From positions 620,001-684,000 of the forward strand of contig CM102287.1 in NCBI GenBank assembly GCA_046563655.1: a DNA stretch of 64,000 nucleotides, given 5' to 3'. Below are positions 25,701 through 64,000 of this stretch, piece by piece. How positions within the stretch are numbered: the first letter of the stretch is position 1; every line of letters begins with the position of its first letter. The DNA comes from Yuukianura sp. NJ FZ-2021. Taxonomy: Eukaryota. The notes below the pieces were generated by a model. That model saw nothing but the letters and a program-made list of their open reading frames with translations, had not been told where the DNA came from and searched no databases. The translations under genes were made by a program, and so were the position numbers.

Positions 25701-28046
25701 AAATTTTCGATCCCATTGGATACTTGTGCCCAGTTCTAGTTCTTCCAAAAATGATTCTCCAGGAAACTTGGACATGCAAAGTTGGATGGGACCAGGAGCT
25801 TCCTGAAACGTTCTGCTCAAGATTTATGGCATGGTGGGAAGATCTACGAGCCACGAGAGTGAAATTCCAAGAAATGTGACGGGGGGAATCTCAAACCAGT
25901 CAACTTGGCAACTACACTGTTTCTGCGATGCTTCTAAACTGGCTTTCGCGGCAGTCGTCTTCCTGAGATGTGAAAACGAACGTGAAGTCAGCGTCAATTT
26001 ACTCCAAGCAAGATCCAGGGCTGCACCAATCAAGTCAGTTTCAATTCCTCGCCTCGAACTTATGGCATGTCTCATCGGGGCAAGGCTGACGAAGTCGGTA
26101 GCAACCGCCTTGGATTTGTCTTCAATCAAAACTACGTTCTGGAGCGACTCCTCTACTGCTTTGGCATGGATACAGGGAGACAACAGTTGGGGAACGTTTG
26201 TTGGGAATCGTGTAAGGGACATTCTAAAAATTACCAATTCAGAGGATTGGCGTTTCGTTCCAGGCACCTTAAACCCAGCAGATTTGCCTTCAAGGGGATG
26301 CTCGGCAACCGAACTACAAAAATTCAAATGGTGGGAAGGACCCGAATGGCTAAAAGAGAAGAAGGAGCACTGGCCGAATTCAAGTTTCACTCCAGATCAG
26401 GATTTGGTGAATGTGGAACTCAAAAAGTGCAGTGTCACATCGGCAGTTGCTACAGAAGTTGTCACTCCGTGGTTCCTCAGAAGATTCTCATCACTTAAGA
26501 AAAACATCAACGTCATGGGATTCATCCATCGTTTCATTCAAAATTGTACTAGTCCAAAGGACAGAAGAATCGATGGCCCCTTGACGATTCCAGAAGTGGA
26601 AAAAGCGGAACTCAGAATCGTGAAACTAGTCCAGTCAGAAGCATTTCCGGAGTCAGGAGACATAATTAAAGGAATACACATCATTCGTGATGCTGACGGT
26701 CTCCTCAGACTCAAAACAAGACTTCTGGAGCGTGACGACACAATTGGTTTCCGACTACCACTAATTTTGCCAAATTCTCATTTATTTACTGATCAGCTGA
26801 TTCGAGAAGTTCATTTGGAAAACAGTCACGGAGGAACTCAGTTTCTCATTTCAAGACTCCGTGAGAAATTCTGGATCTTCCAGATGAGACGGGCAGTCAG
26901 CAAGATTGTTTCAAGATGTGTCAAGTGTCGTCGCTTTCAATCAAAACCATACGCCGACACTGGACTACCAACATTGCCTGGAGCACGAGTGAACACTACC
27001 AAAGTGTTTGAAGTGACGGGAGTGGACTTAGCAGGTCCTATGTACCTCAAGGGTGGTGACAAGGTTTGGATCCTACTAGCCACTTGTGCAGTCTACCGTG
27101 CTGTTCATCTGGAGCTACTAACGTCACTCAGCACAGAATGCTTCATCTTGGGCTTCCAGAAATTCATCAACAGAAGAGGACGTGTCAAAACAGTCTACTC
27201 CGACAATGGGACGAACTTCCGTGGAGCAGACAACCTCTTTGCAAAACTCGACTGGGTCCGAATACAAAAAGAATTCGAAGTAAAACGGATCCAGTGGATA
27301 TTCAATCCTCCAGCATCTCCGTGGTGGGGTGGATTTTGGGAGCGGCTGATCCGATCAGTGAAGGATATCCTCAAAAGAATTTTGGGTAAACGAGTACTGA
27401 ATTATGAACAATTGCTAACTTGCTTGTGTGACGCAGAAGCAGTTGTCAATTCTCGTCCCCTAACCTGTATCACTGAGGACTCCGAAGATCTGATCGCCTT
27501 GACACCAGCAATGTTCCTGCAAGAAATCACAGAAGTTCAGTTCCCAGAAGTTGATCAAGTCACACCGAAGGAACCTGAACTACAGAAACAATTCCGTCAT
27601 CTAACCCGTGTTCGTGAGGAGATCAAGTCCAGATTCAGAAAGGAGTACTTGTCTCTTCTGGTTCAACGTGGGAAGGAAAAGAAGATGAGGGAAATCAAGA
27701 TTGGCGACATTGTCATCATCGGGAGTGACGATGTGAGGAGACTCGTGTGGCCATTGGCAAAGGTCATCGAAATCATCCCGGGAAAGGAGGAGTCAAGCGT
27801 GTCGTCAAAGTGAAGACTGCAGTGGGAACCTTACTCCGCTCCATTCAACGTTTATACCCACTGGAAGTGTCACTGGATCTACCGGAAGTAGCTGCGATGC
27901 CACTACAAGAAGCTGCAACTGAAGTCGAAGTGGAACCGCAGAAGAAACTGACGACTGTTGTGGAAGAAGAATCTCCGATCGAAGAGAAGGTCGTCACTAC
28001 TCGTCGTGGTAGAACCATTAGACAACCGCAAAGATACGGCCAGTAA
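22730..28046 (+). pseudogene. gag-pol: BEL/Pao gag-pol polyprotein with two frameshifts (~25850, ~27790)
   Basis: Gag KLPKISIKKLDGDLREWLGFWAQF; three Cys/His knuckles; protease IIDSGSQRSY; RT ADIRKAF/YVDN; RNase H FCDASKLAFAAV; integrase GVDLAGP, SDNGTNF, PWWGGFWERL; C-terminal WPLAKVIE/VKVKT split over ORFs 22730-25879, 25831-27813, 27747-28046. Confidence 0.95.
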
Positions 28047-28162
28047 TTTCTGATTTGAATTTTTGTATAATTTGATTAATTTTCCATTCATTTCATTAAT
28101 TGACTAATTTAGTTTTAACCTTTAATTGTTTCTTTAACTCCCGTCAAAGAAAGGTGGGAAGA

Positions 28163-28504
28163 TGTTAGAAATATGAGACTCTTGTATGGGAGGAGCCTGA
28201 AGGGCTCTAATTTTAAAATAGCATTTTTGTCGGTTAGGTTTCTTTTGTATTTGATTTTTGTTCAGAAATCCTAACCTTTTGTGTGTGTAATGAGTTAAGT
28301 GGATAGGAAGAAGTGGAGCCGTTAGGAGCTAAGTTTTTTGCGCTCTCACTTCATTGGTGTACTTTGATTGATTCGAATAATTAAAATTAATAATCATTTA
28401 CACCTTCCGTCTTCTTTGAGTTCTTTGAGTTCTCAATTAATTGACTAACGGATACTCGGACCGGAGGTCGAGTAGTCCACATTTGAAAGTCAGTACTTTC
28501 AATA
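28163..28504 (+). repeat. 3' LTR of BEL/Pao element (342 bp)
   Basis: Direct repeat of 22178-22522 preceded by PPT. Confidence 0.95.
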
Positions 28505-31500
28505 AGTTGCGTTGAGTTACTTAGCATACCTATTCGTAAGAAGTATTTATAATGTCAAGCAACTAATTAGTCTCATAGGCAAGATAGAGCTACATATTTG
28601 CAAAGCATCCAGTAATGGGGCTCTCGATACTGGTGTTTACATTTAGAGCCCCATAATGTCACTACAGTAAATAGCTATCCCCCCTAAGTTCTCTGATGAA
28701 GGTTTCTCATCTTGGAGCCATAACATTAGATGCTAGGTGGGATTGTGGGTATTGCTATAACTTCAACGTAACCTTTGCATGTATTGTTGGCCATGATTTT
28801 AGTAAAGCATTTATTCCAAAGCAAATTGTGCTGATATTTGCCATCGTTACCAACTGGGAACAAATCCATCAAATATCCATTTGTCATTTTTGAAAAGTGC
28901 CTACTTTTGATATTAAGTTGCGTTGAGTTACTTAGCATACCTATTCGTAAGAAGTATTTATAATGTCAAGCAACTAATTAGTCTCATAGGCAAGATAGAG
29001 CTACATATTTGCAAAGCATCCAGTAATGAGGCTCTCGATACTGGTGTTTACATTTAGAGCCCCATGATTTCACTACAGTAAATAGCTATCCCCCCTAAGT
29101 TCTCTGATGAAGGTTTCTCATCTTGGAGCCATAACATTAGATGCTAGGTGGGGTTGTGGGTATTGCTATAACTTCAATGTAACCTTTGCATGTATTGTTG
29201 GCCATGATTTTAGTAAATCATTTATTCCAAAGCAAATTGTGCTGATATTTGCCATCGTTACCAACTGGGAACAAATCCATCAAATATCCCTTTGTCATTT
29301 TTGAAAACTGCCTACTTTTGATATTAAGTTGCGTTGAGTTACTTAGCATACCTATACGTAAGAAGTATTTATAATGTCAAGCAACTAGTTAGTCTCATAG
29401 GCAAGATAGAGCTACATATTTGCAAAGCATCCAGTAATGGGGCTCTCGATACTGGTGTTTACATTTAGAGCCCCATGGTTTCACTACAGTAAATAGCTAT
29501 CCCCCCTAAGTTATCTGATGAAGGTTTCTCATCTTGGAGCCCTAACATTAGAGGCTTGGCAGGGTTGTGGGTATTGCTATAACTTCAATGTAACCTTTGC
29601 ATGTATTGTTGGCCATGATTTTAGTAAAGCATTTATTCCAAAGCAAATTGTGCTGATATTTGCCATCGTTACCAACTGGGAACAAATCCATCAAATATCC
29701 CTTTGTCATTTTTGAAAACTGCCTACTTTTGATATTAAGTTGCGTTGAGCTACTTAGCATACCTATTTGTAAGAAGTATTTATAATGTCAAGCAACTAGT
29801 TAGTCTCATAGGCAAGATAGAGCTACATATTTGCAAAGCATCCAGTAATGGGGCTCTCGATACTGGTGTTTACATTTAGAGCCCCATGATTTCACTACAG
29901 TAAATAGCTATCCCCCCTAAGTTATCTGATGAAGGTTTCTCATTTTGGAGCCCTAACATTAGAGGCTTGGCAGGGTTGTGGTATTGCAATAACTTCAATG
30001 TAACCTTTGCATGTTTTGTTGGCCATGATTTTAGTAAAGCATTTATTCTAAAGCAAATTGTGCTGATATTTGCCATCGTTACCAACTTGGAACAAATCCA
30101 TCAAATATCCCTTTGTCATTTTTGAAAAGTGCCTACTTTTGATATTAAGTTGCGTTGAGTTACTTAGCATACCTATTCGTAAGAAGTATTTATAATGTCA
30201 AGCAACTAATTATTCTCATAGGCAAGATAGAGCTATATATTTGCAAAGCATCCAGTAATGGGGCTCTCGATACTGGTGTTTACATTTAGAGCCCCATGAT
30301 TTAACTACAGTAAATAGCTATCCCCCCTAAGTTCTCTGATGAAGGTTTCTCATCTTGGAGCCATAACATTAGATGCTAGGTGGGGTTGTGGGTATTGCTA
30401 TAACTTCAATGTAACCTTTGCATGTATTGTTGGCCATGATTTTAGTAAAGCATTTATTCCAAAGCAAATTGTGCTGATATTTGCCATCGTTACCAACTGG
30501 GAACAAATCCATGAAATATCCCTTTGTCATTTTTGAAAACTGCCTACTTTTGATATTAAGTTGCGTTGAGTTACTTAGCATACCTATTTGTAAGAAGTAT
30601 TTATAATGTCAAGCAACTAGTTAGTCTCATAGGCAAGATAGAGCTACATATTTGCAAAGCATCCAGTAATGGGGCTCTCGATACTGGTGTTTACATTTAG
30701 AGCCCCATGATTTCACTACAGTAAATGGCTATCCCCCCTAAGTTATCTGATGAAGGTTTCTCATTTTGGAGCCCTAACATTAGAGGCTTGGCAGGGTTGT
30801 GGGTATTGCTATAACTTCAATGTAACCTTTGCATGTTTTGTTGGCCATGATTTTAGTAAAGCATTTATTCTAAAGCAAATTGTGCTGATATTTGCCATCG
30901 TTACCAACTGGGAACAAATCCATCAAATATCCCTTTGTCATTTTTGAAAAGTGCCTACTTTTGATATTAAGTTGCGTTGAGCTACTTAGCATACCTATTT
31001 GTAAGAAGTATTTATAATGTCAAGCAACTAGTTAGTCTCATAGGCAAGATAGAGCTACATATTTGCAAAGCATCCAGTAATGGGGCTCTCGATACTGGTG
31101 TTTCCATTTAGAGCCCCATGATTTCACTACAGTAAATAGCTATCCCCCTAAGTTATCTGATGAAGGTTTCTCATCTTGGAGCCCTAACATTAGAGGCTTG
31201 GCAGGGTTGTGGGTATTGCTATAACTTCAATGTAACCTTTGCATGTATTGTTGGCCATGATTTTAGTAAAGCATTTATTCTAAAGCAAATTGTGCTGATA
31301 TTTGCCATCGTTACCAACTGGGAACAAATCCATCAAATATCCCTTTGTCATTTTTGAAAAGTGCCTACTTTTGATATTAAGTTGCGTTGAGTTACTTAGC
31401 ATACCTATACGTAAGAAGTATTTATAATGTCAAGCAACTAATTATTCTCATAGGCAAGATAGAGCTACATATTTGCAAAGCATCCAGTAATGGGGCTCTC

Positions 31501-32123
31501 GATACTGGTGTTTCCATTTAGAGCCCCATGATTTCACTACAGTAAATAGCTATCCCCCCTAAGTTATCTGATGAAGGTTTCTCATCTTGGAGCCCTAACA
31601 TTAGAGGCTTGGCAGGGTTGTGGGTATTGCTATAACTTCAATGTAACCTTTGCATGTATTGTTGGCCATGATTTTAGTAAAGCATTTATTCTAAAGCAAA
31701 TTGTGCTGATATTTGCCATCGTTACCAACTGGGAACAAATCCATCAAATATCCCTTTGTCATTTTTGAAAAGTGCCTACTTTTGATATTAAGTTGCGTTG
31801 AGTTACTTAGCATACCTATACGTAAGAAGTATTTATAATGTCAAGCAACTAATTATTCTCATAGGCAAGATAGAGCTACATATTTGCAAAGCATCCAGTA
31901 ATGGGGCTCTCGATACTGGTGTTTACATTTAGAGCCCCATGATTTCACTACAGTAAATAGCTATCCCCCTAAGTTATCTGATGAAGGTTTCTCATCTTGG
32001 AGCCCTAACATTAGAGGCTTGGCAGGGTTGTGGGTGTTGCTATAACTTCAATGTAACCTTTGCATGTATTGTTGGCCATGATTTTAGTAAAGCATTTATT
32101 CCAAAGCAAATTGTGCTGATATT
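28505..32123. repeat. Satellite array block 2 (~9 monomers, more diverged)
   Basis: Same 410/411-bp monomer resumes in register after the TSD. Confidence 0.99.
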
Positions 32124-32488
32124 TGAAGCGGAGAGGGACTGACGAAGGACGGATTCGGAACTCCGGGGAAAACCGAGTAGCTAGGAATAGGTAGAGTAGG
32201 AGGACTATGTTCTCGAGATAGGATACAGAAATATTCTTTTTCACATTTTTCTGTAACGAGAGTCTCTTCCCAACCTTCAACAAGTGAACACCTAATTAAA
32301 AGTCTATTCCATTAGTTCACTGTTGTTGTCACGACCAGTTCATTTCTCAGTTGATGTTGGCTCAATAGGAGAACCTAGCATTGTTGACCTCAGGTCAAAT
32401 CTTCTCTCCAGGAAGATTCGACCTGAACTGCAGATTTCCCTGTAGAGGAAATCACAGTTACGGTCTCAGGGACTGCGGGGTTGTTGCA
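32124..32488 (+). repeat. 5' LTR of Gypsy element A
   Basis: TGAAGCGGAG...GTTGTTGCA; direct repeat of 41001-41365. Confidence 0.97.
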
Positions 32489-33350
32489 GTGGCGACCGAA
32501 GGGATCATTCCAGTGATGTCATGTTGTCAACTGAAATGAAAGGTCAAGAGGTCAAGTGAGACTTTCCGGTAGAGAAAGGCTCAATTGAAGACAATTGAAG
32601 AAGGAGACGAGATAAATTGATGAGAATTTCCCTGTAGAGGAAATTCTGACCTACCAGCTGATTGATTTTCCTGCAGAGAAAAGCAATCCAGCATTGGAAT
32701 AAATCGAAAACCTGCCTGTATTTTCCAGTAGAGAAAAGACGGGTCAGGTCAAAGGTCAAATAAAGGCACGGGTGCTGCCAAAAATTTTCCGAAAATCGTT
32801 TTCACGCACGGGTGCTGCCCGATTTTTTCAAAAATTCAAACACTTTGAAATTTTTCTGAAGAGAAAAGTTCAAAGGTCGAAGACACCAAACCTACGGACA
32901 GAGAGCAATTCGTCGCTCATTTTGAAAAATCCTGAAGAGATTTTTCGAAAAACTGAACCGATTTTCCGGTAGAGAAAATCGTTCACTGTCCAATTGATGC
33001 CAAATTAAGAGGAGGAAGAGATTCGCTTAACAACCCTGACATAAATAAAGGCACGGGTGCTGCCAAAAAATTCCTAAAAATCAGACATTACGCACGGGTG
33101 CTGCCCAAAATTTTTCAAAAAGTTGAAATCACGCACGGGTGCTGCCCGATTTTCCAAAAATTACCAAATACTTTGATTTCCCTGAAGAGGAAATCGAAAA
33201 CACAAGGAGAGGAACAAGTTGTAACTTGGAGTTGAAGCTCCTGAAGAGAGCATCGACACCAAGACCATCTCAAAACCACTTAAAACAAACAGAATCCTAA
33301 AAATCGCCTCAGTTAACTGGTTTAATTGAAATTGCTGTAGAGAATTTCGT
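32433..33350 (+). promoter_or_regulatory. Array of stem-loops with conserved 7-nt loop C[T/A/G]G[T/A/C]AGA in LTR U5/5' leader
   Basis: Loops at 32440, 32567, 32632, 32671, 32726, 32856, 32932, 32967, 33182, 33241, ~33336, each flanked by different but self-complementary arms. Confidence 0.8.
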
Positions 33351-33366
33351 TTTCCAGCATTAACTA

Positions 33367-35010
33367 ATGAGCAGAAGGGAAGTGAGAGATTTAGAACAAA
33401 ACTTTCGTGCATTCCTACGTGGATTCAACATGGACAGACAAAACATAAATCCAATTCCTGAAGAACCAATTGATGTTGATGATCTTGAAGGTGACATGCA
33501 TATTCAGAATCCAGTAGATGATGATGATGATTATTCAAATGGAGGTTCAGATGCAAGTTCCGTTATTCAACGAACTGTACCAAACCAAGTCCCTATCGTC
33601 TCATCTGCTGCTCCAACAATCACAACTCAAGCTTCAACAGCAACATCAGGCATGCGTACTACGGGTTCTGGTCCATCCAGTTCACGTACTGTACCGAGTG
33701 GAGCAGATTATGTTCGCATTCCACAATCAAGTCAAATTAATGAACAAAATATTGCGAAATGGATCAATGAGGGATTAGCTGCTATGGTTTCAGAAATTGT
33801 GAATCCTATACATACGGCTCTAACACGATTGGATAGACGCATGCACAGAATGGAGAATGACAATGCAAATCCTACTGGCAGCCAATTCTACCAACCACAA
33901 TTTAACCAGAGACAGCAAATTAATCAACCTCAACAAGATTTCCTAAATGCTCTGCAAGGAATTCGCCTGACAACAGTCAGTTCTGCAATTCCAATTCCCA
34001 AGTTCAATCATAAGAAAACAACAGCTTCAGACTTCTTGAAGGATGTTGAACGATATTACAGAGCTCAACAGTACAATGAAAGTGACTACTTGTATTTGGT
34101 CAAAAACATTTTGCCAAATGACGCAAAGGAATGGTGGGACCATGTACGTCACAGAATCGATGACTGGGATGAATTCAAACAAGAATTTATGGAGAAATAC
34201 GACGGAGCTACTAACATCATGGAACGAATGAGGCTTTTGCAAACAAGACTTCAGCGTGTCCATGAGCCAACAGAGTCTTTCATTTTCGAAATGATGAAGA
34301 TGTCAAAGGTCGTTTATCCAAATGAACCTACAGAAATGGCTGTTGAAAGAACAAGAAATGCCCTATTTCCACAGTTGCGACTGGGTTTAGGAGCTCAAGA
34401 AATTAAAACACCGGAGGCTCTAGTCAAAGCTTGTCACGTGGTTCACCGTAGCCTGGAAGCTAACGCCAGAATATACAGAGAGAAATTACGCCTACCGCCG
34501 TTGAGTAAACACGAACTTGAAGAATCTAAGAAAAATCAAGGCCCCAAACAAAAATCTGAAGAAAAGTCAACTGAAAAAACGGAAGCTGAGTCGTATCGCG
34601 GTTCAACTTTCTTTCGTGGACAAAGGGGATTCAATCAAAGATACAATTCAAATTCTAGACGTCCCTTTCGCGGCGGAAGAGGAAATTTCCCTGGAAGAGG
34701 AAATTTCACTTATCGCGGTGGAAGATGGAACGGAAATCCAAGAGATGACAAACAAAATGACAAACCTCAAGAAACAAAGCCAAGTCAAAATCCATCTGAC
34801 AAGAACAAACTGGCTAACGTTCAATGCATGAAATGTAAAGGCTTTGGCCATCTTACAAAAATGCGTCCAAACAAAACCGGATTGGCACTTCCCGCTCATG
34901 ATGAGGAATGGGAAACGGAGTATGAAGAGGAATACTACCAAGAAGAGCAAATGGATGACGAAAGTACCAATCAAAATCCAGATTTAAACTCCAAAGGGAG
35001 ACACCAATAA
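33367..35010 (+). CDS. gag: Gag of element A (547 aa)
   Basis: Capsid-like AKEWWDHV...WDEFKQEFMEKY; RGG-rich NC region; degenerate knuckle CMKCKGFGHLTKMR. Confidence 0.9.
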   Translation: MSRREVRDLEQNFRAFLRGFNMDRQNINPIPEEPIDVDDLEGDMHIQNPVDDDDDYSNGGSDASSVIQRTVPNQVPIVSSAAPTITTQASTATSGMRTTGSGPSSSRTVPSGADYVRIPQSSQINEQNIAKWINEGLAAMVSEIVNPIHTALTRLDRRMHRMENDNANPTGSQFYQPQFNQRQQINQPQQDFLNALQGIRLTTVSSAIPIPKFNHKKTTASDFLKDVERYYRAQQYNESDYLYLVKNILPNDAKEWWDHVRHRIDDWDEFKQEFMEKYDGATNIMERMRLLQTRLQRVHEPTESFIFEMMKMSKVVYPNEPTEMAVERTRNALFPQLRLGLGAQEIKTPEALVKACHVVHRSLEANARIYREKLRLPPLSKHELEESKKNQGPKQKSEEKSTEKTEAESYRGSTFFRGQRGFNQRYNSNSRRPFRGGRGNFPGRGNFTYRGGRWNGNPRDDKQNDKPQETKPSQNPSDKNKLANVQCMKCKGFGHLTKMRPNKTGLALPAHDEEWETEYEEEYYQEEQMDDESTNQNPDLNSKGRHQ

Positions 35011-35032
35011 ACACCTCGATGTGTGTTCTCCC
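34983..35032 (+). promoter_or_regulatory. -1 ribosomal frameshift signal of element A
   Basis: Slippery T TTA AAC in gag frame, then stem GGGAGACAC...GTGTTCTCCC; the -1 frame is open into pol. Confidence 0.8.
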
Positions 35033-38000
35033 AATTCTCAACCGAATATCCAGAGGTGTACCTACAATTCAAGCTACTTCAAATCAATTCAAATTTTCGG
35101 CACTCTTGGACTCAGGATCTAAGTTTTGCATTATGACAGAACAATTGGCAAAAGACACCAAATCAAAAATTTCAAAATCAGAAACTTCTGTACTTCGCGG
35201 ATTGGCGGGGAAAGTACAAACAATTGGCAAAGTCAAACTTCAATTCAAAATTGGAAATCGATTAATCAATTGGCAATTTCAAGTAGTGGAGAAGCTTCCA
35301 GTCTCTTGCATTCTTGGAGCTGACTTCATTCAGAAAAACAAAATTCTGTTTGACTTAGACGAATCAAAATTTTGGTTCAAGGAGGAGCCACACCAAACAT
35401 TTTTCATCAGAGGATTTCATGACAAGAAACCCAAGCTTAGGCTATCAGTCACATCTTCCGCTTTCGAATTTTCCAGTAGAGAAAAGTCGATTGACGATCG
35501 TGTGAAAGAGATCCTAGACAAATTCCCAAATGTTGCAAGAAAGGATGGAAAATTTGGACGAACGGATGTCACATACCATGTCATTGACACTGAAGGTCCA
35601 CCAGTCAAACAACGTCCATACAAAACTTCACCAATGATGAGAGAAATTATCAAACAAAATGTCGAAATTCTAGAAAAAAATGGAATGATCAGACCATCCA
35701 GATCACCGTATGCATCACCAGTCGTTTTAGATCAAAAGAAAAATGGCCAGTGGAGGCTCTGCATTGACTACAAACGTCTCAATAAACAAACAAAAGACAA
35801 TGCTGGACCGATGCATAACGCTCACACAATTTTAAGACAAATTCCAGCAGGTTACTGGTATTCAGTCATTGATCTTCAGGCTGGATATTGGCAAATCATG
35901 CTGTCAGAAGAAAGTATTGAAAAATCCGCTTTCATTACAGAAGATGGACATTGGGATCTACTCGTTATGGGTTTCGGATTGAAAAATGCTCCAAAAACAT
36001 TTGCAGCATTGATGAACATTGTCCTTAAAGACGCAATTGGTAAATACGTTCATGTATTTATTGATGACACCATCATTTTCTCCAAAGATTTGGAAACTCA
36101 TCTCAAGCATATTGAAATGGTCATGGAGAAACTCAATACCGCAAATCTAACAATCAACTTGGAAAAATCAATTTTTGCCAAGCGGAGAGTTCCATTTCTT
36201 GGACATACAATTGGAGAAGACGGATTGAAAAAGAATTTAGACAAAATGGAAGCTATTACAGACTATCCAAAACCTCAATGTGTCAAGGACGTACAGCGAT
36301 TTCATGGCATGTGTCAATGGTATTCTACATTCATTGAACACTTTGCGCAGAAAGCTGAACCCTTATACAAGCTTCTACGAAAAGGAACAAAATGGAATTG
36401 GGGTGAAGATCAAGAAAGATCGTTCCAGACTCTCAAAAAAGACATTTGCAATGAAGTAATACTCAAAGAAGTCGACTATTCCAAACCAATTATCCTCAAA
36501 TGTGACGCATCCGATATTGGCTTGGGCGCAGCGCTGGTCCAAGTTATAGATGAAAAGGAACGGCCAATACTTTTCATCTCCAAAATTCTGAAGAAAACAG
36601 AACGGAGTGCACACATTTATGAGAAGGAAGTTTATGCAATCGTCTGGGCGTTAAAAACTCTCAAACACTATCTGCAAGGTTACAGTTTCAAAATCTACAC
36701 AGACAGCAGAGCAGTCAACTACATCAAAGGACTTAAAGACTCAAAACCAAAGTTCATGAGATGGGCTCAAGAAATTGATCGCTGGAATGCGACAATTGAA
36801 TTAAGAAAAGGCAAAGAGAATGTCGAGGCAGATGCTCTCTCACGGGCGCCAGTTGACAGTCACAATACAGAAGACATGGATGATCCTGAAGAGATCATCT
36901 ATACTCCTGTATGTTTCTGTTATGATACGCCGACATGGAGCCAAATCAAAAAAGAACAAGAAAAGGACATTGAAATTTCACGTCTCAAGAAATTGCTTTG
37001 TTATGACCCTTCAAATTCCAAGTGCGCACACTTCGTAGTTGAAGATGGAATAGTGAAGCGTCTAGTCGAGATTCCGCTCAAGAGAATCAACAAGTACTCT
37101 CTCGCAGATACTTCCGAGGTTCACTCATTAGTAGCTGAAACTCAAATTCAAAAAATGGAAATTCCGGGTTTCCAAAAATGTACATCCTGTGCCGAGGAAC
37201 AACTTCCAGTTCAGTCAGTAGGGATCGTTCCAGACTCAAATCAAACCAAAATGTCAAAACAGAAGTTAGTTTGGCAAAAAATCAAGATTCCAGTTATTCC
37301 AAAGTCACTCCAAAATGAAATTCTCAAGATATTTCATGATGCACCAGAGTCAGGTCATCCAGGAGTCAGGAAGACAAAGGAAAAAATCAAAGATAGATGT
37401 TTCTGGAATGGAATGAATAAGGACATTGCCGACTACGTCAAGTCGTGCAAAATCTGTCAAACGACAAAGCCAGACAATACCTTACCATCCGGGTTGCTTC
37501 AATCAAAAGATTACGCTACATCAGTTTTTTCTACACTACACATCGATTTTCTAGGCCCTATGGTGCCTAGTTCAAGAAGAAACAAGTTCATTTTGGTCGT
37601 AATCGATGAATTATCCAAGTGGGTGGAGCTATTTCCCATGACATCAGACACATCAGCAAAAGTTGCAGAAGTTTTAGAAGATTCAATATTTTGTCGTTTC
37701 GGAGTTGCCAAAGTTATCCTTTCTGACAATGCGAGTCAGTTCAAATCCAAAATAATCAAGAAATTGTGCAAACAATGGAGAATCCAACATCGTTTCATTA
37801 GCCCATACCATCCACAGCCAAATCAAGCAGAAAGAGTTAACAGAAATCTAAAGGCAATGATACAAGCATACGTCGAAAATAACCACAGAACTTGGGATGT
37901 TCATCTTCAAAAATTCGCATTTGCACTGAGAACATCAATAAACGAATCGACAAAAGTCACACCAGCTCTTTTGAACTTAGGCAGAAATTTGCCACTTCCG

Positions 38001-38552
38001 TTTGACAGAAATTTGGAAGCCGAAGGAAATACCAATTTTGACGAAGAAAGAGAGAAATTGACAGATTTACCCGAGAAACTACAAGAAATAATCAAATGGG
38101 TACGAGAGAACATGGAGGAGGCACATGAGAAAAATAAGAAAAATTACGACATTTCTCATCGAGAAGTTACGTACGACATTGGTGATTTAGTCTTGGTCAG
38201 AAATCACCCAATTTCCAAGAAGGACGATGCGGTTATGCAAAAACTTTCAAAACGTTGGCTTGGCCCATTCAAAATTACATCAAAAACCGCAGACGCAAGC
38301 TACGAGTTAGCAAATCCTGTCACAAACAAGAAATTCGGAAAACGTCACGTTTCGGAGCTAAAACCATTTTTTGTGCGAGAAGAAACTGCGTCAGAAAACA
38401 AGCCCAGTCACCTTCCGAAGACTAAAACAATTACCAGGAAGTTAGGCCAGAAGAAACCAACTACTGACATTCCGACAAGTCCAGCAGTTACCAGAAAATT
38501 ACGCGAAAGAAAACAAGTAAATTATAGGTCAATGGCAGGCCTACGTCAATAG
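34983..38552 (+). CDS. pol: Pol of element A (protease, RT, RNase H, integrase), expressed via -1 frameshift
   Basis: LLDSGS; WRLCIDYKRLN, DLQAGYWQI, FIDD; CDASDIGLGA; H...GH...CKIC; IDFLGP, SDNASQF, AERVNR; GPF. Confidence 0.96.
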   Translation, partial: FKLQRETPINTSMCVLPILNRISRGVPTIQATSNQFKFSALLDSGSKFCIMTEQLAKDTKSKISKSETSVLRGLAGKVQTIGKVKLQFKIGNRLINWQFQVVEKLPVSCILGADFIQKNKILFDLDESKFWFKEEPHQTFFIRGFHDKKPKLRLSVTSSAFEFSSREKSIDDRVKEILDKFPNVARKDGKFGRTDVTYHVIDTEGPPVKQRPYKTSPMMREIIKQNVEILEKNGMIRPSRSPYASPVVLDQKKNGQWRLCIDYKRLNKQTKDNAGPMHNAHTILRQIPAGYWYSVIDLQAGYWQIMLSEESIEKSAFITEDGHWDLLVMGFGLKNAPKTFAALMNIVLKDAIGKYVHVFIDDTIIFSKDLETHLKHIEMVMEKLNTANLTINLEKSIFAKRRVPFLGHTIGEDGLKKNLDKMEAITDYPKPQCVKDVQRFHGMCQWYSTFIEHFAQKAEPLYKLLRKGTKWNWGEDQERSFQTLKKDICNEVILKEVDYSKPIILKCDASDIGLGAALVQVIDEKERPILFISKILKKTERSAHIYEKEVYAIVWALKTLKHYLQGYSFKIYTDSRAVNYIKGLKDSKPKFMRWAQEIDRWNATIELRKGKENVEADALSRAPVDSHNTEDMDDPEEIIYTPVCFCYDTPTWSQIKKEQEKDIEISRLKKLLCYDPSNSKCAHFVVEDGIVKRLVEIPLKRINKYSLADTSEVHSLVAETQIQKMEIPGFQKCTSCAEEQLPVQSVGIVPDSNQTKMSKQKLVWQKIKIPVIPKSLQNEILKIFHDAPESGHPGVRKTKEKIKDRCFWNGMNKDIADYVKSCKICQTTKPDNTLPSGLLQSKDYATSVFSTLHIDFLGPMVPSSRRNKFILVVIDELSKWVELFPMTSDTSAKVAEVLEDSIFCRFGVAKVILSDNASQFKSKIIKKLCKQWRIQHRFISPYHPQPNQAERVNRNLKAMIQAYVENNHRTWDVHLQKFAFALRTSINESTKVTPALLNLGRNLPLPFDRNLEAEGNTNFDEEREKLTDLPEKLQEIIKWVRENMEEAHEKNKKNYDISHREVTYDIGDLVLVRNHPISKKDDAVMQKLSKRWLGPFKITSKTADASYELANPVTNKKFGKRHVSELKPFFVREETASENKPSHLPKTKTITRKLGQKKPTTDIPTSPAVTRKLRERKQVNYRSMAGLRQ

Positions 38553-38859
38553 TTAAGTCAAAATAATAATTAATAATTAGTTAAGAAATTATTCAAAGTA
38601 TTACAATATAAATCGTAATATTAATAGATTTATAATTTTCCTTTATTATTTCATAATTCATTCATATTTATTCATAATCGTACTGAAATAGTATAATTCC
38701 AGTATTTAGTTGTTAGATTTAATGTTAAGTAAAGTAAAATCGCACGTTGACGTTAAGCAGTTTCCGCTAAATCAGAGCTTTAGGCATATCCTCACCCACG
38801 AGCGCCACTCTCTCACATGCTTTCTAGATCCAGCACAGCACAGTCGAGAGATATACTCT

Positions 38860-38991
38860 AATTTCCCTGTAGAGGAAATTGGAATTCAAAAACTGAAAAT
38901 CTCCTGTAGAGAGAATTTCGGATTCAAAAAACGTTCAACTGATTTTCCAGAAGAGAAAATCGGTGTTGACTTCTCTGTAGAAGAAGTCGAC
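38860..38991 (+). promoter_or_regulatory. Four CNGNAGA-loop hairpins immediately upstream of ORF3 ATG
   Basis: AATTTCC-CTGTAGA-GGAAATT; AATCTC-CTGTAGA-GAGAATT; GATTTTC-CAGAAGA-GAAAATC; GACTTCT-CTGTAGA-AGAAGTC. Confidence 0.8.
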
Positions 38992-38992
38992 A

Positions 38993-41071
38993 ATGTCTGA
39001 CAAACGTTGTTCCGACGTTGAACCGAAGAAGAAATCGTTTCACGACAAGTTACTGGATGGATTCAAGGTTTCTGGACGAGTGGACGTATTACCACAACAC
39101 GACAAAAGATATCCTGATCTTGTTGCTGAAAGACGGGAAAGAAACAATTGGCCTGTGTTTCCCATTCGTAATCATCCAAAGTTCGGACTCGCGACGATGT
39201 GGAAACCGTCTGAATTCTATCGCAAAAGTTCATCGTTTCCTGTGACGAAACGGGAAAAAGTTCCCCTGACATTCGTGGATTCGGCTCTGAAATTTGAAGA
39301 AATGAAACGTGTGCTACAAGGAGAAACTGAAATTGGGGTTGACATTGAGAATTCGCTAATTCCGGACTACATTTCGAGATATACATGCCTGTTGCAATTT
39401 TCAACATTCAAAGAAGATTTCGTGGTTTGTCCGTTCCTACTTCATGCAAAAATCAAAGAATTGGAATCAATTTTTCTCAATCCGGATATCATCAAAATCA
39501 TCTTCTCTGCTCAAAACGATCTGTTAGCATTGGCACTGGATTTCCAACTCTTTGCTGTAGCGGTAATCGACCCACAAATCATTCATCGTGAATTCATTGG
39601 TGAGAACTTGTCACTGGAAAAATTTGTTCAACTTTACATGGATAAATCTACTCAAATTGACAAATCGGCTCAATGCTGTGATTGGAGAGTACGACCATTG
39701 AAGTCCGACATGTTGAACTACGCTAAAGACGACACTCATCTGTTGATTAGAGCATGGACTACAATGAAAACACAACTGGGATTGTTTAAAGAAGAAAACA
39801 AAAAGAAATTACAGAAGTCTATCGAAATCTGCAACCGAATGGTAACGAAGATTCCAAAATTACCAGTTTATCCATCGGCCGAAGAATTATCTTACAAGTT
39901 GCGAGTTCCAGTCAGTCAAAGCAGTTTGTTTGATGACTTGTACAAATGGAGACAAGAATTGGCCAAAAGGAAGAATGTGGAACCGAAATTTATCATGTCA
40001 GATACAACTTTACTTGAATTGGCAAACAACTGCCCCATTCGTACCACAAGATCGCACAATCAAGCAGGAATTCAAGATTTTCTGCGTAAAAATTCAATGG
40101 CATGGGAACGAGCTGACGATCTGGTGAAAATCACTAGAAAGTATGACAAGTACAACTACGATGTACTTAAACAAAAAGTCAACTACTTCTTTGGCTCACA
40201 GAAGAATTCCAATGCAAGTAACAAGAAAGATGACATGCAGTCTAAATTAGTAACAACGTCTACTAGAAGTAACAAAACTACTGAAATTGTTGAGAGACCA
40301 ATGGAAGTGACCACTACTCGAAACATCGCTGCTAAAGAAGACGACAATAGGTCAAAGCTATTGCCGACTTCTGCTAAAAGTGTCAACAACACTCAAATTA
40401 CTGACAAACCAACGGAAGTGAAAAGCAGTCGAAACGTCACTTTAATTCAAACCAAACCGGCACAACAAGACGTAATAACCGACATCCAACCAACGTTTAC
40501 TGTACAGCTTCCATCATTGACAGAATATCTGCAGATTCATGCTGACGAGGATATGGAAGATATAACTGACGAGTTGCAGATCAGCATCCAACAAAACGAG
40601 AGACAAGTGGTGACAGTTCCTGCATCAATTCAAAAGCCAAGTTACAAAGATTCACTTGTTTGTTATCTTTGTTTCTCAAACGGGCACAACAGACACGACT
40701 GTCCTCAAGTCAACAAAGAACCGGACGCAAGGAATACTCTGGATAGAAAACAAAACCGGAAACTCTATTTTGAACAACGTCCAGAAAAGAGAAATCATTT
40801 GACTCATAAAATGAATGTCAAAAGAAGGGAGAAACTTAAGAAGAAACGTCAATCTGGAAATTCTGCATGCTGTTTTCGGAACTCCGGACGTGTCGAGTGG
40901 AAACGAGGCGACAAGAAGACGAAGATTGTATCCGCTGGTCGAGGTCGGAGGACCGTGCATGAGGGTCGCGCTGATGGAGGCGCATTTCCCGGGCGCAATA
41001 TGAAGCGGAGAGGGACTGACGAAGGACGGATTCGGAACTCCGGGGAAAACCGAGTAGGTAGGAATAGGTAG
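38993..41071 (+). CDS. ORF3: Rrp6/EXOSC10 (RNase D family)-like DEDDy 3'-5' exonuclease + HRDC + CCHC knuckle (692 aa)
   Basis: ExoI IGVDIE, TCLLQFSTFKEDFVV, ExoII SAQNDL, DWRVRPL, ExoIII YAKDDTHLL; HRDC-like LFDDLYKWRQELAKRKNVEPKFIMSDTTLLELA; CYLCFSNGHNRHDC; ORF ends inside 3' LTR. Confidence 0.92.
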   Translation: MSDKRCSDVEPKKKSFHDKLLDGFKVSGRVDVLPQHDKRYPDLVAERRERNNWPVFPIRNHPKFGLATMWKPSEFYRKSSSFPVTKREKVPLTFVDSALKFEEMKRVLQGETEIGVDIENSLIPDYISRYTCLLQFSTFKEDFVVCPFLLHAKIKELESIFLNPDIIKIIFSAQNDLLALALDFQLFAVAVIDPQIIHREFIGENLSLEKFVQLYMDKSTQIDKSAQCCDWRVRPLKSDMLNYAKDDTHLLIRAWTTMKTQLGLFKEENKKKLQKSIEICNRMVTKIPKLPVYPSAEELSYKLRVPVSQSSLFDDLYKWRQELAKRKNVEPKFIMSDTTLLELANNCPIRTTRSHNQAGIQDFLRKNSMAWERADDLVKITRKYDKYNYDVLKQKVNYFFGSQKNSNASNKKDDMQSKLVTTSTRSNKTTEIVERPMEVTTTRNIAAKEDDNRSKLLPTSAKSVNNTQITDKPTEVKSSRNVTLIQTKPAQQDVITDIQPTFTVQLPSLTEYLQIHADEDMEDITDELQISIQQNERQVVTVPASIQKPSYKDSLVCYLCFSNGHNRHDCPQVNKEPDARNTLDRKQNRKLYFEQRPEKRNHLTHKMNVKRREKLKKKRQSGNSACCFRNSGRVEWKRGDKKTKIVSAGRGRRTVHEGRADGGAFPGRNMKRRGTDEGRIRNSGENRVGRNR

Positions 41072-41365
41072 AGTAGGAGGACTATGTTCTCGAGATAGGA
41101 TACAGAAATATTCTTTTTCACATTTTTCTGTAACGAGAGTCTCTTCCCAACCTTCAACAAGTGAACACCTAATTAAAAGTCTATTCCATTAGTTCACTGT
41201 TGTTGTCACGACCAGTTCATTTCTCAGTTGATGTTGGCTCAATAGGAGAACCTAGCATTGTTGACCTCAGGTCAAATCTTCTCTCCAGGAAGATTCGACC
41301 TGAACTGCAGATTTCCCTGTAGAGGAAATCACAGTTACGGTCTCAGGGACTGCGGGGTTGTTGCA
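41001..41365 (+). repeat. 3' LTR of Gypsy element A
   Basis: Direct repeat of 32124-32488. Confidence 0.97.
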
Positions 41366-42420
41366 TATTTGCCATCGTTACCAACTGGGAACAAATCCAT
41401 CAAATATCCCTTTGTCATTTTTGAAAACTGCCTACTTTTGATATTAAGTTGCGTTGAGTTACTTAGCATACCTATTTGTAAGAAGTATTTATAATGTCAA
41501 GCAACTAGTTAGTCTCATAGGCAAGATAGAGCTACATATTTGCAAAGCATCCAGTAATGGGGCTCTCGATACTGGTGTTTACATTTAGAGCCCCATGATT
41601 TCACTACAGTAAATGGCTATCCCCCCTAAGTTATCTGATGAAGGTTTCTCATTTTGGAGCCCTAACATTAGAGGCTTGGCAGGGTTGTGGGTATTGCTAT
41701 AACTTCAATGTAACCTTTGCATGTTTTGTTGGCCATGATTTTAGTAAAGCATTTATTCTAAAGCAAATTGTGCTGATATTTGCCATCGTTACCAACTGGG
41801 AACAAATCCATCAAATATCCCTTTGTCATTTTTGAAAAGTGCCTACTTTTGATATTAAGTTGCGTTGAGCTACTTAGCATACCTATTTGTAAGAAGTATT
41901 TATAATGTCAAGCAACTAGTTAGTCTCATAGGCAAGATAGAGCTACATATTTGCAAAGCATCCAGTAATGGGGCTCTCGATACTGGTGTTTCCATTTAGA
42001 GCCCCATGATTTCACTACAGTAAATAGCTATCCCCCCTAAGTTATCTGATGAAGGTTTCTCATCTTGGAGCCCTAACATTAGAGGCTTGGCAGGGTTGTG
42101 GGTGTTGCTATAACTTCAATGTAACCTTTGCATGTATTGTTGGCCATGATTTTAGTAAAGCATTTATTCCAAAGCAAATTGTGCTGATATTTGCCATCGT
42201 TACCAACTGGGAACAAATCCATCAAATATCCCTTTGTCATTTTTGAAAACTGCCTACTTTTGATATTAAGTTGCGTTGAGTTACTTAGCATACCTATTTG
42301 TAAGAAGTATTTATAATGTCAAGCAACTAATTAGTCTCATAGGCAAGATAGAGCTACATATTTGCAAAGCATCCAGTAATGGGGCTCTCGATACTGGTGT
42401 TTACATTTAGAGCCCCATGA
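41366..42420. repeat. Satellite array block 3 (~2.6 monomers)
   Basis: Monomer resumes in register after TSD; ends abruptly at AGCCCCATGA. Confidence 0.99.
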
Positions 42421-42803
42421 TGAGGCAGACGGAACGTCTCTACTTGACCTCTGACCTAACTGACTCCTATGCTGCCCTTACTCCAACAAATGAAAAATGA
42501 GATGGAAGGCGAAGATCGGTCAGAGAGCTCTGTCTTGGTTGAGGTCTTTATTCATACTAGCCCTGTCTATATACAAGTTTTCCCTATCTCTCATCATTTT
42601 GAATTGTGTTCCCGCCGGGGTCTCACCTTACCCGGTTGCACACTACGGGCTCTAAAAAGAACCTCCGGGAAGGGGGGGGGGGTGATCTGCCAGTGACGAG
42701 GGGGTCCTCGGGCGACGTGTCCAGGCGGCAATTCCAAGTCCAGATGAAATCCAATGTACAGGTCTGGTTGTGATCATGATGAGGGATTGTAATGATGAAG
42801 TGT

Positions 42804-44870
42804 TTATTGTTGATTTGGATTTGAATTAAATCGAAGATAAGGGTGGAATCCTCCGCATTTGTCCATGACTTTGCGCTGATTGTGTTTTTTCAATGGAATG
42901 AAGTAGTCTGGATACTTGTAGTGGAGTCGTTTCTTTTGACAGGCGCGTAAAAACTTGAATTGTGATGACTCCTTAATAAGTGGATCGTTGTGAGGACATT
43001 GTTCTCGTTGATGATCCTCGGCAAAACAGACGAAACAGTGGACTGGACATTGTGGAAGTAATTTCTGCGGAACGGATGGTTGTTGTGGATTCGGCGATTT
43101 TGCCATTGGAATTGTTGGAAGACTATTAACAGGCGTAGAAATGGTGGAATAAGGTTGAAGTACAGCAGCCAATTCAGTAGATGTGGTGCTATGTACAGGC
43201 GTAGAGATGGTGGGACTTGAGGCGAATAGTTTCAGTAACTTTGAGTTTTCACTCGTTTGGGGCGGAATGATGTTGGTTTCCGCGGGCGTTACATCGATAA
43301 CACAAGAGTCCGTCTGCGTCTGTGCAGTTGCCGTGATGGTGGTTGGCGGGGCTTCAGTTTGAATAGCCACTTCTGCATATGTTTTGATGTTGGGTTGTTC
43401 CATTGATGTGGTAAAATCTTGCAAAGTTTGTGTATCTTCTAGAGACATTGCTGAGTCACTGTCGCTTAAGTCGATGATTGGACGAAAATTGACAGTTTGT
43501 GGAATCGGCATTGTGAATGGTGGCCTGGGCGGTTGTTGAGCGAGTTCCGAATCCCAATCTTCTTCCTCTTGATTTGTGTTTGTGGGAGTTGTAACTTTAA
43601 GAGTTGAATGTGGCGGTACGACAACGACTGAGCGGATTTTTGGGCGATTTGTAGTTGGTTTCGGAGTAGATGATGTTGGCTGGACTGGAAATTTCTTGAT
43701 CAGATGCAAAGTCGGGTAAGCCATGAATCTTGAGAAGTAGCTGTGAGATGCTGACTGTGGCTCAATTTAATTTAAATCTGCACTTCCTTTGATCTGGTGA
43801 GCTTCTTTAACAATGTTCAGTAGTTTTTCTCTGGAACACAGTGATCTGGGTGGAAGGTCCTGATTTTTGCCAATTTCATTTCGCTTGTCGAAAATATGGA
43901 GAAGTAAGCGTTGTTGACTTGGACTTAAATCTTCTCTGTTCTGGATAGAATCGAATGTCTCCACAACGGGTTGAATGAAGTCTCTGGAGTGTTTTGGAGG
44001 TGACCAAGTAACCTGTAGCCATTGATCTTTGTATTGAGGAAAGTCAGTTGCAGATCCATAACGAGATTTACAGCGGTTCCATGCTTTGAGAAGAAAATGA
44101 GAGTCAGTGCGAGCATAATGGAGTTGTTCTTCAGTGAGGGGGCGTTTGGTCCAGTCTGTTGTAGCTCCGATTGACTTGTCGGTGAGTTTTTCATCATCGA
44201 AATGAACGTGTTCTCGGATGACTGTCCAGAAATCAGCTTGTTTGGATCTTTTCTCAAAATCGTACTGATGTTGAAATCTGTAGTAGACTTTTTGCAGATC
44301 AATGACAGCAACCGGAGAAATGTGGTAGAAAAGATGCCACTTATGTAAGTCTTGTTCTCCGGCATGTAGGATTTTCAAAATATTGGGGCTCTCCAGGATG
44401 GTTTTCAGTTGGCAAATTGAATCAGCAAATTTCAGTGGACATAAGATGTAATCAGTTTCTTGAGTAGAGAATTGCATCAAAGCTGGGAAGGTATGGCCGA
44501 AGTAAGAGAGATCATATTGTGGAGAGAATTCCATGTCCAAACCGATTTCGTCTTGAATTGACAGATCATTTAGCATTGAGTTGAAGTCGTCCTGAGTTTT
44601 GATGACAATGAGTGGAGTAGTTTGGCGAGTGTCATCCATTGAAAGATCATGATGTGGTTTGACATGTCGTGGTTCAAGTGCAAAGTTTAGGATGGCCTTT
44701 CGATTTACATTTTCAGGGAACAAGATTCCCGCGTGATTCCGTTTGATTGCAATTTCTCGAAAGGCTTTGTACTCAAGATTATTAAAAGGCCGGATTCTTT
44801 TAGTTGCCGCATCATTGGTGTTGGTGACTCGTTCCATGACCGATTTTCTGAGTAACTGACTTTCTGCCAT
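42804..44870 (-). pseudogene. Second Rrp6-like exonuclease + HRDC + CCHC ORF3, ~688 codons with a single in-frame TAA at 43767-43769
   Basis: IGLDME, ALMQFSTQETDYIL, HAGEQDL, DWTKRPL, YARTDSHFLLKAW; HRDC-like QQRLLLHIFDKRNEIGK; the 42 nt between ORFs 43767-44870 and 42804-43724 are open and in frame; CFVCFAEDHQREQC. Confidence 0.85.
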
Positions 44871-44944
44871 CTACAAGATGAAATAAATCAAATGAGTCAT
44901 GATTGACTAAATTGTTTTTAGAAGAGGCAAAGTGGTGAAAAACA

Positions 44945-45219
44945 TTCCAGAAAGCGGAAAATCCTTTAGTGGACATGCAACAAATTTCCTTCAAGTGGAA
45001 AAGTCTTTAATTAGACAATGTGACTTTAGTTCTTTAAGTAGAAAGTCCTGAATTGGACATTTTCAAAATTCCTTAATCGGAAAGTCTTGAATTAGACAAC
45101 GAAATCGAATTTCCCTAAATGGAAAAGTCCTAAATCGGACATTTGAAATTTCTTTAATCGAAAAGTCTTGAATTAGACATTTGAATTTCTTTAATTGAAA
45201 AGTCCTGAATTGGACATTT
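44945..45219 (-). repeat. ~40-bp-period array of alternating hairpins upstream of element B ORF3
   Basis: Seven GTC[C/T]-N6-[G/A]GAC-type units alternate with TT(T)C-N6-7-GAA(A) units. Confidence 0.85.
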
Positions 45220-45376
45220 AATGAGTTCAACATTTTTATTTTAGTTGTCTTGCTTTCGTAATGCTAACATAATTGATTTGCCTCTGTAACCAGCAAGTGT
45301 TCTGTATGATGAGTGAGGTGAGCCACTTCTACCCCCGTATTTCTCAAATTGCCCCAGGTCAACATGCGCAAAAGGA

Positions 45377-45511
45377 CAATTACGGTTGCGCGGTATTACT
45401 GTATTTCCGGTGGTACGGCGACACGTTATTCACGGTTGCGGTGACCTGAAAGGCAATTACGGTTGCGCGGTATTACAGTATTTCCGGTCGTACGACGACA
45501 CGTTATTCACG
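45377..45511. repeat. Subterminal tandem repeat (~77-bp period, x2), probable Polinton TIR region
   Basis: CAATTACGGTTGCGCGGTATTAC...GACACGTTATTCACGG occurs twice. Confidence 0.65.
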
Positions 45512-63872: not shown

Positions 63873-63975
63873 GAAAAAAGCTAGAATTAGAGCTTAAAGA
63901 AATGTTTAGAAAAAAAAAGCTAGAATTAGAGCTTAAAGAAATGTTTAGAGAAAAAAGCTAGAATCAGAGCTTAAA
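63873..63975 (+). repeat. 38-39-bp tandem repeat, ~2.7 copies
   Basis: AAAAAAGCTAGAATTAGAGCTTAAAGAAATGTTTAG; a 39-nt unit could encode EKKLELELKEMFR (possible gag coiled coil). Confidence 0.8.
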
Positions 63976-64000
63976 CAAAAGAACAGATGAGTTTAATAGT

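Follow-up and report, generated by a model that had tools for sequence, protein, structure and literature searches.

We analysed a 64,000-nt stretch of DNA from Yuukianura sp. NJ FZ-2021 (GenBank assembly GCA_046563655.1, contig CM102287.1, positions 620,001 to 684,000 of the forward strand). This whole stretch is called the window here, and positions are counted from its first letter. On its minus strand, the window carries element B (42422-45306), a copy of a Ty3/gypsy retrotransposon that is truncated at its 5' end. The copy contains a third open reading frame (ORF3) of 688 codons (42804-44870, minus strand) and, 5' of this frame on the same strand, a tandem array of small palindromes (44945-45219). 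The preliminary description of this DNA had placed a hairpin array at 44945-45219, upstream of an exonuclease ORF. This was confirmed: 75 nt separate the end of the last module, at 44945, from the ATG at 44870, and PF01612 (3'-5' exonuclease) matches a 367-amino-acid frame starting at that ATG with an E value of 2e-22. The array is genuine and non-random. It is specific to the B family, is located in the untranslated spacer between pol and ORF3, and is probably a cis-acting control element.

The array is built of seven units of 37-43 nt with two palindromes each, and the units start at 45217, 45180, 45142, 45099, 45060, 45018 and 44976 (minus strand). Tandem Repeats Finder reported a period of 37 with 4.9 copies at 45030-45219, and a repeat search found a 36-nt unit in six copies at 44985-45219, spaced 37-43 nt apart; the count of seven takes in a degenerate last unit. 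The type 1 palindrome, GTCY-N6-RGAC, has the arms GTCC/GGAC or GTCT/AGAC around a 6-nt loop. Six of these are exact, and the seventh reads GTCC..GGAT. The type 2 palindrome, TTTYC-N5-7-GRAAA, has a loop of 5-7 nt and the arms TTTC/GAAA, TTCC/GGAA, TTTCC/GGAAA or TTCT/AGAA. Altogether, 14 palindromic modules sit 75-349 nt 5' of the ORF3 ATG, and the starts of adjacent modules are about 13-25 nt apart. The earlier estimate was about 13 hairpins at a spacing of about 20 nt, and every variant quoted with that estimate is present. The array is AT-rich, lies in no CpG island, and its units have no CGG-CCG core. It is also non-coding, as no frame of at least 100 amino acids covers 44945-45219.

The palindromes were compared with the background of the window. 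The GTCYNNNNNNRGAC pattern has eight matches in the 64 kb, six of them inside the array. Shuffled sequences led to an expectation of 1.88 matches, and none of 100 shuffles reached eight. All six exact type 1 matches in the array are Watson-Crick at the variable pair, though the GTCYNNNNNNRGAC pattern allowed mixed pairs. Hairpins with an RATTHA loop and a stem of at least 4 bp were formed at 7 of the 116 motif sites on the minus strand, and all seven lie in the array; on the plus strand, none of 121 motif sites formed one. The density of perfect hairpins (stem of at least 4 bp, loop of 5-7 nt) was scanned in 300-nt segments over 22-64 kb. The segment from 44901 holds 20 such hairpins, which is the maximum of the scan (mean 4.4, standard deviation 2.8). 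The TTCYNNNNNNRGAA pattern alone is not enriched across the window (7 found, 6.9 expected). Counts at chance level also came from a scan for promoters and terminators of bacterial type, which has little meaning for DNA of this kind. The B-type hairpin is absent from the window outside the array, including the part of the long terminal repeat (LTR) of B that is present there.

The ORF3 of element B codes for a DEDDy 3'-5' exonuclease domain as well as an HRDC-like region. After these come a stretch of low complexity and, at the C-terminus, a CCHC knuckle. Over the exonuclease/HRDC part it is 28% identical to the ORF3 of element A, a second Ty3/gypsy element of the window, and the C-terminal CCHC knuckle is common to both. 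The catalytic DEDDy residues are intact in A and B (pattern D-E-D-Y-D). In an alignment of 10 ORF3 sequences, D112, E114, Y252 and D256 are invariant and D174 is nearly so. Rrp6/EXOSC10 structures are the best match of the transposon-type ORF3 profile (E 1.5e-57). A word search of proteins with the B ORF3, its stop read as X, gave just two weak matches. In an exhaustive profile search with ORF3, 38 proteins scored E <= 1e-30. Roughly the top 15, together with some lower ones, align from the N-terminus, as transposon ORF3s do; most of the others begin at query position ~65-95, as in Rrp6-type cell proteins. The B ORF3 has a single in-frame stop (43767-43769, minus strand), and this codon differs in every aligned contig from four public sequencing runs (X1, X2, X3 and X5). 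Judging from these alignments, the stop seems to be private to the window copy, and the ORF3 of the family is probably open in other copies.

The remainder of the copy is short. Downstream of ORF3 is the 3' terminal region of B, presumably its 3' LTR (42422-42803, minus strand), which adjoins a 411-bp satellite at 42421/42422. Upstream of the array is a leftover piece (45220-45306, minus strand), and the copy is cut at 45306, leaving it without pol and a 5' LTR. Contigs of other B copies from the same four runs continue past 45306 with different sequence, and the sequence by which they continue was not found in the window. Element B is tentatively assigned to Ty3/gypsy because of its ORF3 homology and because its terminal region abuts the satellite. 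Multiple copies of the family exist in the source organism, and one run that carries the label of a second organism contains it too.

The units of the array have diverged to identities of 60-89%, and despite this, both palindromes are kept in all seven. In the type 1 stems, 28 of 28 cells are in standard pairs, with one G-U among them, and one pair shows a C-G to U-A double change in three of the seven units. Among the type 2 stems, one unit has TTCT/AGAA where TTCC/GGAA is found elsewhere. Units U1 and U2 are the most alike (89%), yet they are of opposite C-G/T-A type, and two of the three substitutions between them fall at paired positions. A higher-order repeat of two units may not fully account for the alternation of the C-G and T-A forms: units of the same type are only slightly more alike than units of different type, and the closest pair is of different type. 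The two forms may descend from one or a few events. In a neutral simulation with a naive model, all seven type 1 hairpins were kept in 0.3% of runs. The loops carry several changes, but the type 1 loop is asymmetric and conserved, with AATTCA in four of seven loops. This is more in line with recognition of a hairpin loop than with a DNA site bound by a dimer. Predicted RNA energies range from -1.8 to -4.8 kcal/mol for type 1 and from 0 to -3.1 kcal/mol for type 2. Rfam 15, searched over 32000-45400 at E <= 1, gave no match within the arrays of A or B.

Other genomic copies of the array were examined in DNA contigs from the four public runs, with 40 of 406 rows of differing letters listed. Among the listed pieces, the array differs least from the window, with 2 of 184 nt in X1, and 3 of 184 and 3 of 143 nt in X5; the ORF3 pieces among those listed differ by 2-14%. 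One contig of another copy has TCTC..GAGA in place of the GTCC..GGAC of the window, with the same loop.

Element A (about 32121-41364, plus strand) is an intact Ty3/gypsy element with 99% identical LTRs and matches to RVT_1, RT_RNaseH and rve. It encodes gag and pol upstream of an intact ORF3 of 692 amino acids (38993-41071, plus strand), which has a PF01612 match (E 7e-25), HRDC and a CCHC knuckle. The preliminary description had stated that A carries an array in the same position as B, and four hairpins are indeed found directly before its exonuclease ORF3 (38860-38988, plus strand). They have 7-bp stems and a 7-nt loop, C-N-G-N-A-G-A, and 5 nt lie between the last one and the ATG at 38993. 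Both sides change in five of the seven stem pairs with 96% of the cells paired, a level reached by 1 of 500 shuffles. The fold of this spacer has a z score of -2.7. A loop-defined scan (stem of at least 4 bp) found 17 A-type hairpins in the window, all on the plus strand and all within element A: 10 in the LTR end and 5' leader, two in pol, four before ORF3 and one in the 3' LTR (32440-33341, 35474, 36886, 38867-38975 and 41317). G-U pairs lengthen 6 of 16 A hairpins in the sense direction, and the antisense-equivalent pairs lengthen none of 16. The A hairpins are sense-strand structures, most simply RNA. As most of them are in the 5' leader, the module seems to label the RNA or non-coding DNA of the element in general and does not look like an operator of ORF3.

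Some further features of element A were recorded along with these hairpins. One of the two hairpins in the pol coding region has a 10-bp stem. Besides the hairpins, the 5' leader has direct repeats of AGGTCA-type words, detected by Tandem Repeats Finder, and about five copies of a 41-nt unit that contains GCACGGGTGCTGCC, at 32541-32556 and 32745-32760 and at 32766-32830 and 33051-33161 (all plus strand), which makes at least three kinds of repeated motif. The minus-strand scan also showed a hairpin with a 16-bp stem in each LTR (32395-32433 and 41272-41310), directly before the first A-type hairpin. The sole hit of the Rfam search lies within ORF3 (40560-40625, plus strand); it is a match below threshold to the type I hammerhead ribozyme model (21.4 bits against a gathering threshold of 34, E 0.33) and is probably due to chance.

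A third gypsy family was found on a 5-kb metagenome contig, L001, which contains the C-terminus of an integrase, a 325-nt spacer and then an ORF3 of 704 amino acids with PF01612 and HRDC. The spacer (2348-2672) holds three related 28-nt hairpins, in which both sides change in 4 of 11 pairs and one G-U is invariant in all three. Here, 97% of cells are paired, 11 of 500 shuffles reached the level of covariation, and the z score of the spacer fold is -2.3. An 11-nt word is common to the three hairpins and occurs nowhere else in the contig. The hairpins are dispersed, and Tandem Repeats Finder detected no tandem array in the spacer. An additional 7-bp hairpin is at 4935-4960, downstream of ORF3. 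Of the other metagenome matches, L002 had no upstream DNA. For L003, the frames on its 108-kb contig are dense and overlap; it was taken to be bacterial without a Pfam check and was not used as a relative. Two frames of ~380 amino acids in bacterial metagenome-assembled genomes were judged, by their length and record title only, to be RNase D-like and not transposons. Viral contigs gave no DNA of relatives.

The ORF3 proteins of A and L001 are 22-28% identical to that of B, and hairpins are present in the pol-ORF3 spacer of all three exonuclease-ORF3 families whose spacer could be read (A, B and L001), which is a small sample. The preliminary description had regarded hairpins plus an exonuclease ORF as a shared design and had suggested a survey of such families. 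The idea of a shared design is partly supported by these three families, although the L001 hairpins do not form a tandem array and the A hairpin is not tied to ORF3. The statement that each family has its own loop held, with no A-type hairpin in B and no B-type hairpin in A. AATTCA-like words are found in the spacers of all three families; they occupy different hairpin parts and were not treated as homology. Overall, the evidence on the array is suggestive at the level of the families and weak for B alone.

Between the array and the ATG of the B ORF3 is a non-repeated spacer (44871-44944, minus strand). It ends in a pyrimidine-rich run and an AG immediately before the ATG, which, from its sequence, looks like a candidate 3' splice site. 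L001 also has a pyrimidine tract and AG directly before its ORF3 ATG. In A, the tract and AG are 12 nt before the ATG, inside the last hairpin loop. Upstream ATGs in B number nine against 7.3 expected, five of them in the array and two in the non-repeated spacer. Since they are not avoided, the stretch would fit one that ribosomes do not scan as the leader of ORF3. The count is near expectation in L001, and upstream ATGs are depleted in A; across the three families, these counts are not decisive.

The reading that we tentatively prefer is that the array is a family-specific, protein-binding set of RNA hairpins on the unspliced genomic RNA. This reading is based on the array being non-random, on the structure being kept over diverged units, and on hairpins in the same position in A and L001. 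In the sense-strand genomic RNA, each unit would offer a pair of small stem-loops whose loop is conserved and asymmetric, and together the stem-loops could form a multivalent landing pad for a protein. Candidate binders are the Gag nucleocapsid, the ORF3 protein with its HRDC region and CCHC knuckle, or a host factor. If the predicted acceptor is used, the array would be intronic relative to a spliced ORF3 mRNA and would mark unspliced genomic RNA only, like retroviral packaging and export signals. Such hairpins may have a part in packaging, in export or in controlling the ORF3 message. For B, action at the RNA level is an inferred step, as are splicing and the binding of any protein.

Several properties of the B array weigh against this reading. 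Its stems are only 4-5 bp long, and half of the hairpins are barely stable as RNA: three of the seven type 2 hairpins have predicted energies of 0 to -0.1 kcal/mol, and the three GTCT-type hairpins are at -1.8 kcal/mol. The 390-nt B region folds no better than shuffled sequences (z -0.9 sense, -1.7 antisense). There is no wobble strand asymmetry in B, with 18 hairpin calls with sense G-U against 14 for the antisense equivalent; this comparison carries little information. The compensatory swaps reported in the preliminary description are present, but they concern one pair in each hairpin type, and the B signal is weak; 23 of 500 shuffles reached the type 1 level. Covariation is clear in A and L001. 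Also, the C-G and U-A forms alternate strictly unit by unit and are partly linked to a third, unpaired column, and thus the covariation may be one inherited event or a short conversion tract. When the neutral simulation started from two ancestral unit types, all seven type 1 hairpins were kept in 4.7% of runs. In the other genomic copies, the number of units varies. Some joints go back 39 nt (X1, X3 and X5) or 35 nt (X1), and others skip 134 nt (X1 and X2) or 260 nt (X3), which is minisatellite-like behaviour. Finally, a contig of the second organism has one type 1 hairpin with two of its four pairs broken, and one variant hairpin in X1 is paired only in part.

The closest known layout is that of the RM boxes of Sireviruses, which are plant Ty1/copia elements. 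According to the sections of Bousios et al. (2010, PMC2829016) on these boxes, they are family-specific palindromes with varying intervening bases. The same sections place 77 of 79 linker RM copies upstream of ENV, which was taken as support for an internal promoter. The boxes cluster in the LTR, and they occur upstream of the extra ORF only in envelope-carrying elements (PMC2829016). Like them, the B array consists of many family-specific palindromes in non-coding DNA directly 5' of a third ORF, and, like the Sirevirus LTR boxes, the hairpins of element A are also found at the LTR end and in the leader. Sirevirus boxes, as described there, are GC-rich with a CGG-CCG core and CpG islands, precede an envelope-like gene and are read as DNA sites. 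In contrast, the B array is AT-rich and precedes an exonuclease gene in a Ty3/gypsy element within an animal-like repeat landscape, and the B motif is missing from its LTR part. A and L001 also differ from Sirevirus boxes in showing RNA-type features, namely G-U pairs, covarying stems and a conserved loop.

This likeness leads to an alternative in which the array acts at the DNA level, as a cis-regulatory element with tandem palindromic sites that serve as an enhancer or internal promoter for ORF3. We regard this as possible but doubtful. The short 4-bp arms in B resemble half-sites, and the weak RNA stability and missing wobble asymmetry noted above would also be in line with DNA sites. A dimer bound to such sites should, however, accept mixed half-sites (GTCC with AGAC), yet none of the six exact sites is mixed, and the centre that is conserved lacks symmetry. 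The columns of the unit that vary least (G14, A15, T17, T18 and T19) span the junction of the two palindromes and may represent a single DNA motif. Tandem arrays whose copy number varies are a typical form of enhancer, and the 75 nt from array to ATG leave room for a core promoter in B; in A, there is no such room, as the last hairpin ends 5 nt before the ATG. The sense-strand G-U extension in A (6 of 16 against 0 of 16) and the G-U kept in all three L001 copies are difficult to reconcile with DNA sites. The resemblance in layout to Sirevirus RM boxes (PMC2829016) is countered by the LTR part of B in the window, which has no B-type palindromes, and by the AT-rich composition of the array and its lack of a CpG island.

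Another possible explanation is that the array is a neutral minisatellite. A 38-nt unit with two chance palindromes would have been amplified by slippage or template switching, and the likeness to A and L001 would be coincidental or a general habit of such spacers. Copy number differs among genomic copies in both organisms, stems are broken in some variant copies, and there are short, weak stems and no fold signal over the whole region. This DNA has many perfect 4-bp hairpins (4.4 per 300 nt), so that a unit with two of them is not rare, and if the covariation is traced to one inherited difference, the keeping of all seven type 1 hairpins has a p value of ~0.05. Neutral drift is harder to reconcile with the opposite types of U1 and U2 at 89% identity and with two of their three substitutions at paired positions. 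It also fits poorly with the contrast between 0 of 28 unpaired type 1 stem cells and several loop changes, with all 14 modules kept. Among the listed pieces, the array is kept at least as well as ORF3 between copies and between the two organisms, and covarying hairpins lie in the same place in two families whose ORF3 is 22-28% identical to that of B. We consider a neutral origin unlikely. The array could instead be a splicing-control region, in which pyrimidine-rich arms with AG serve as 3' splice sites that are masked or work as decoys, or in which hairpins modulate the ORF3 acceptor; such a region would determine how much genomic RNA stays unspliced relative to ORF3 mRNA. In every A hairpin, the 5' arm is rich in pyrimidines and the loop has AG as its last two letters, and an AG is found at the boundary of loop and 3' arm in each B module, although AG is nearly automatic with purine-rich 3' arms. 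A pyrimidine tract and AG precede the ATG in B, L001 and A, and the extra genes of gypsy-type elements commonly use spliced RNAs for their expression (PMC10309623, PMC2829016). This explanation seems very unlikely to us. It is predicted from sequence, with donor and junction unobserved, and 13 of the 17 A hairpins are away from ORF3, 10 of them in the 5' leader, where control of an acceptor would hardly explain them.

A more specific form of the preferred RNA-hairpin reading is that the RNA hairpins of each family are cognate binding sites for its own Rrp6-like ORF3 protein; these sites would either bring the nuclease to the genomic RNA or keep it away. This reading is quite unlikely, and the same A hairpin filling the 5' leader, hence not tied to ORF3, argues against an ORF3 operator. 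If true, it would be a retroelement-encoded operator-protein system comparable to Rev/RRE, built around a nuclease of the nuclear-exosome type.

Gag-bound packaging signals and Rev/RRE-type export mark unspliced genomic RNA. The logic proposed for B resembles these retroviral signals in having structure on unspliced RNA only, conserved loops and an accessory protein that sometimes comes from a spliced mRNA. The retroviral signals are single complex structures at defined positions that were shown experimentally, whereas the B array is known from sequence alone, consists of very small hairpins in tandem and has no sequence similarity to them. Tandem arrays in the 5' untranslated region of insect gypsy-group elements and the monomers of mouse L1 act as enhancers, insulators or promoters. 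The B array shares with these arrays the variable number of tandem units in a non-coding leader, with a regulatory role in their case. It differs in preceding a third ORF; they are at the 5' end and have no covarying hairpin pairs. Among gypsy elements, Cer1 CERV is an earlier example of an accessory gene that is spliced and deals with genomic RNA (PMC10309623).

Exonuclease genes in such elements have also been described before. In bdelloid rotifers, the ORF3 of the LTR retrotransposons Juno and Vesta encodes an RNase D-like exonuclease of the DEDDy type (Rodriguez et al. 2017, PMC5408684), and the DEDDy-type domain is listed among accessory domains in a passage of PMC6338049. Like Juno and Vesta, A and B are of Ty3/gypsy type with a DEDDy 3'-5' exonuclease as third ORF, and some elements of the Juno/Vesta type have a Cys/His zinc motif, according to the portion of PMC5408684 on these proteins. 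The Juno/Vesta-type ORF3 has DEED in place of DEDD in the same account (PMC5408684); A and B keep D-E-D-Y-D. The main text of PMC5408684 makes no mention of hairpins or tandem repeats. A full-text literature search, covering main texts outside subscription journals, found no description of hairpin arrays beside an exonuclease ORF3. Repeated palindromic motifs in the non-coding regions of retrotransposons are a known theme, and the B array is a new variant of it in a known kind of element.

The window as a whole is eukaryotic repeat DNA, in which a satellite is broken up by nested mobile elements. The 411-bp satellite, delimited by Tandem Repeats Finder, occupies 1-22181, 28503-32125 and 41365-42421. 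It is 97-98% homogeneous, has more than 65 units in total and is the insertion ground for at least three LTR elements; such a landscape resembles that of a centromere or of heterochromatin. A Bel/Pao element is found at about 22178-28504. Element B is cut by a degenerate Maverick/Polinton-like element (45307 to about 54500, plus strand) with an rve integrase match, weak matches to an adenovirus-type protease and polymerase B, and one frame with a BIR domain. Another gypsy element, C, has no exonuclease ORF3, hardly any leader and no such array, which is a single comparison. Near its gag-pol junction, the segment 59501-59900 is the runner-up in short perfect hairpins (15 per 300 nt). A second 38-nt tandem repeat, in 3.2 copies, is found at the window edge (63858-63979). 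Its units contain the 5-bp palindrome AAGCT..AGCTT, with 8 nt at the centre whose core is AATTC-like, and the repeat is possibly in the LTR or leader of another element.

Extra genes in LTR retrotransposons are rare, and their expression and use are mostly obscure; the function of the exonuclease ORF3 is open, as stated in the part of PMC5408684 that discusses it. A cis element that recurs in family-specific form beside the exonuclease ORF3 in three distant families would provide a concrete handle on this gene. If the array is instead a DNA enhancer, the Sirevirus pattern of boxes before an extra ORF would extend from plant copia to animal-type gypsy elements. Data on the array could also show how such elements tell genomic RNA from subgenomic message.

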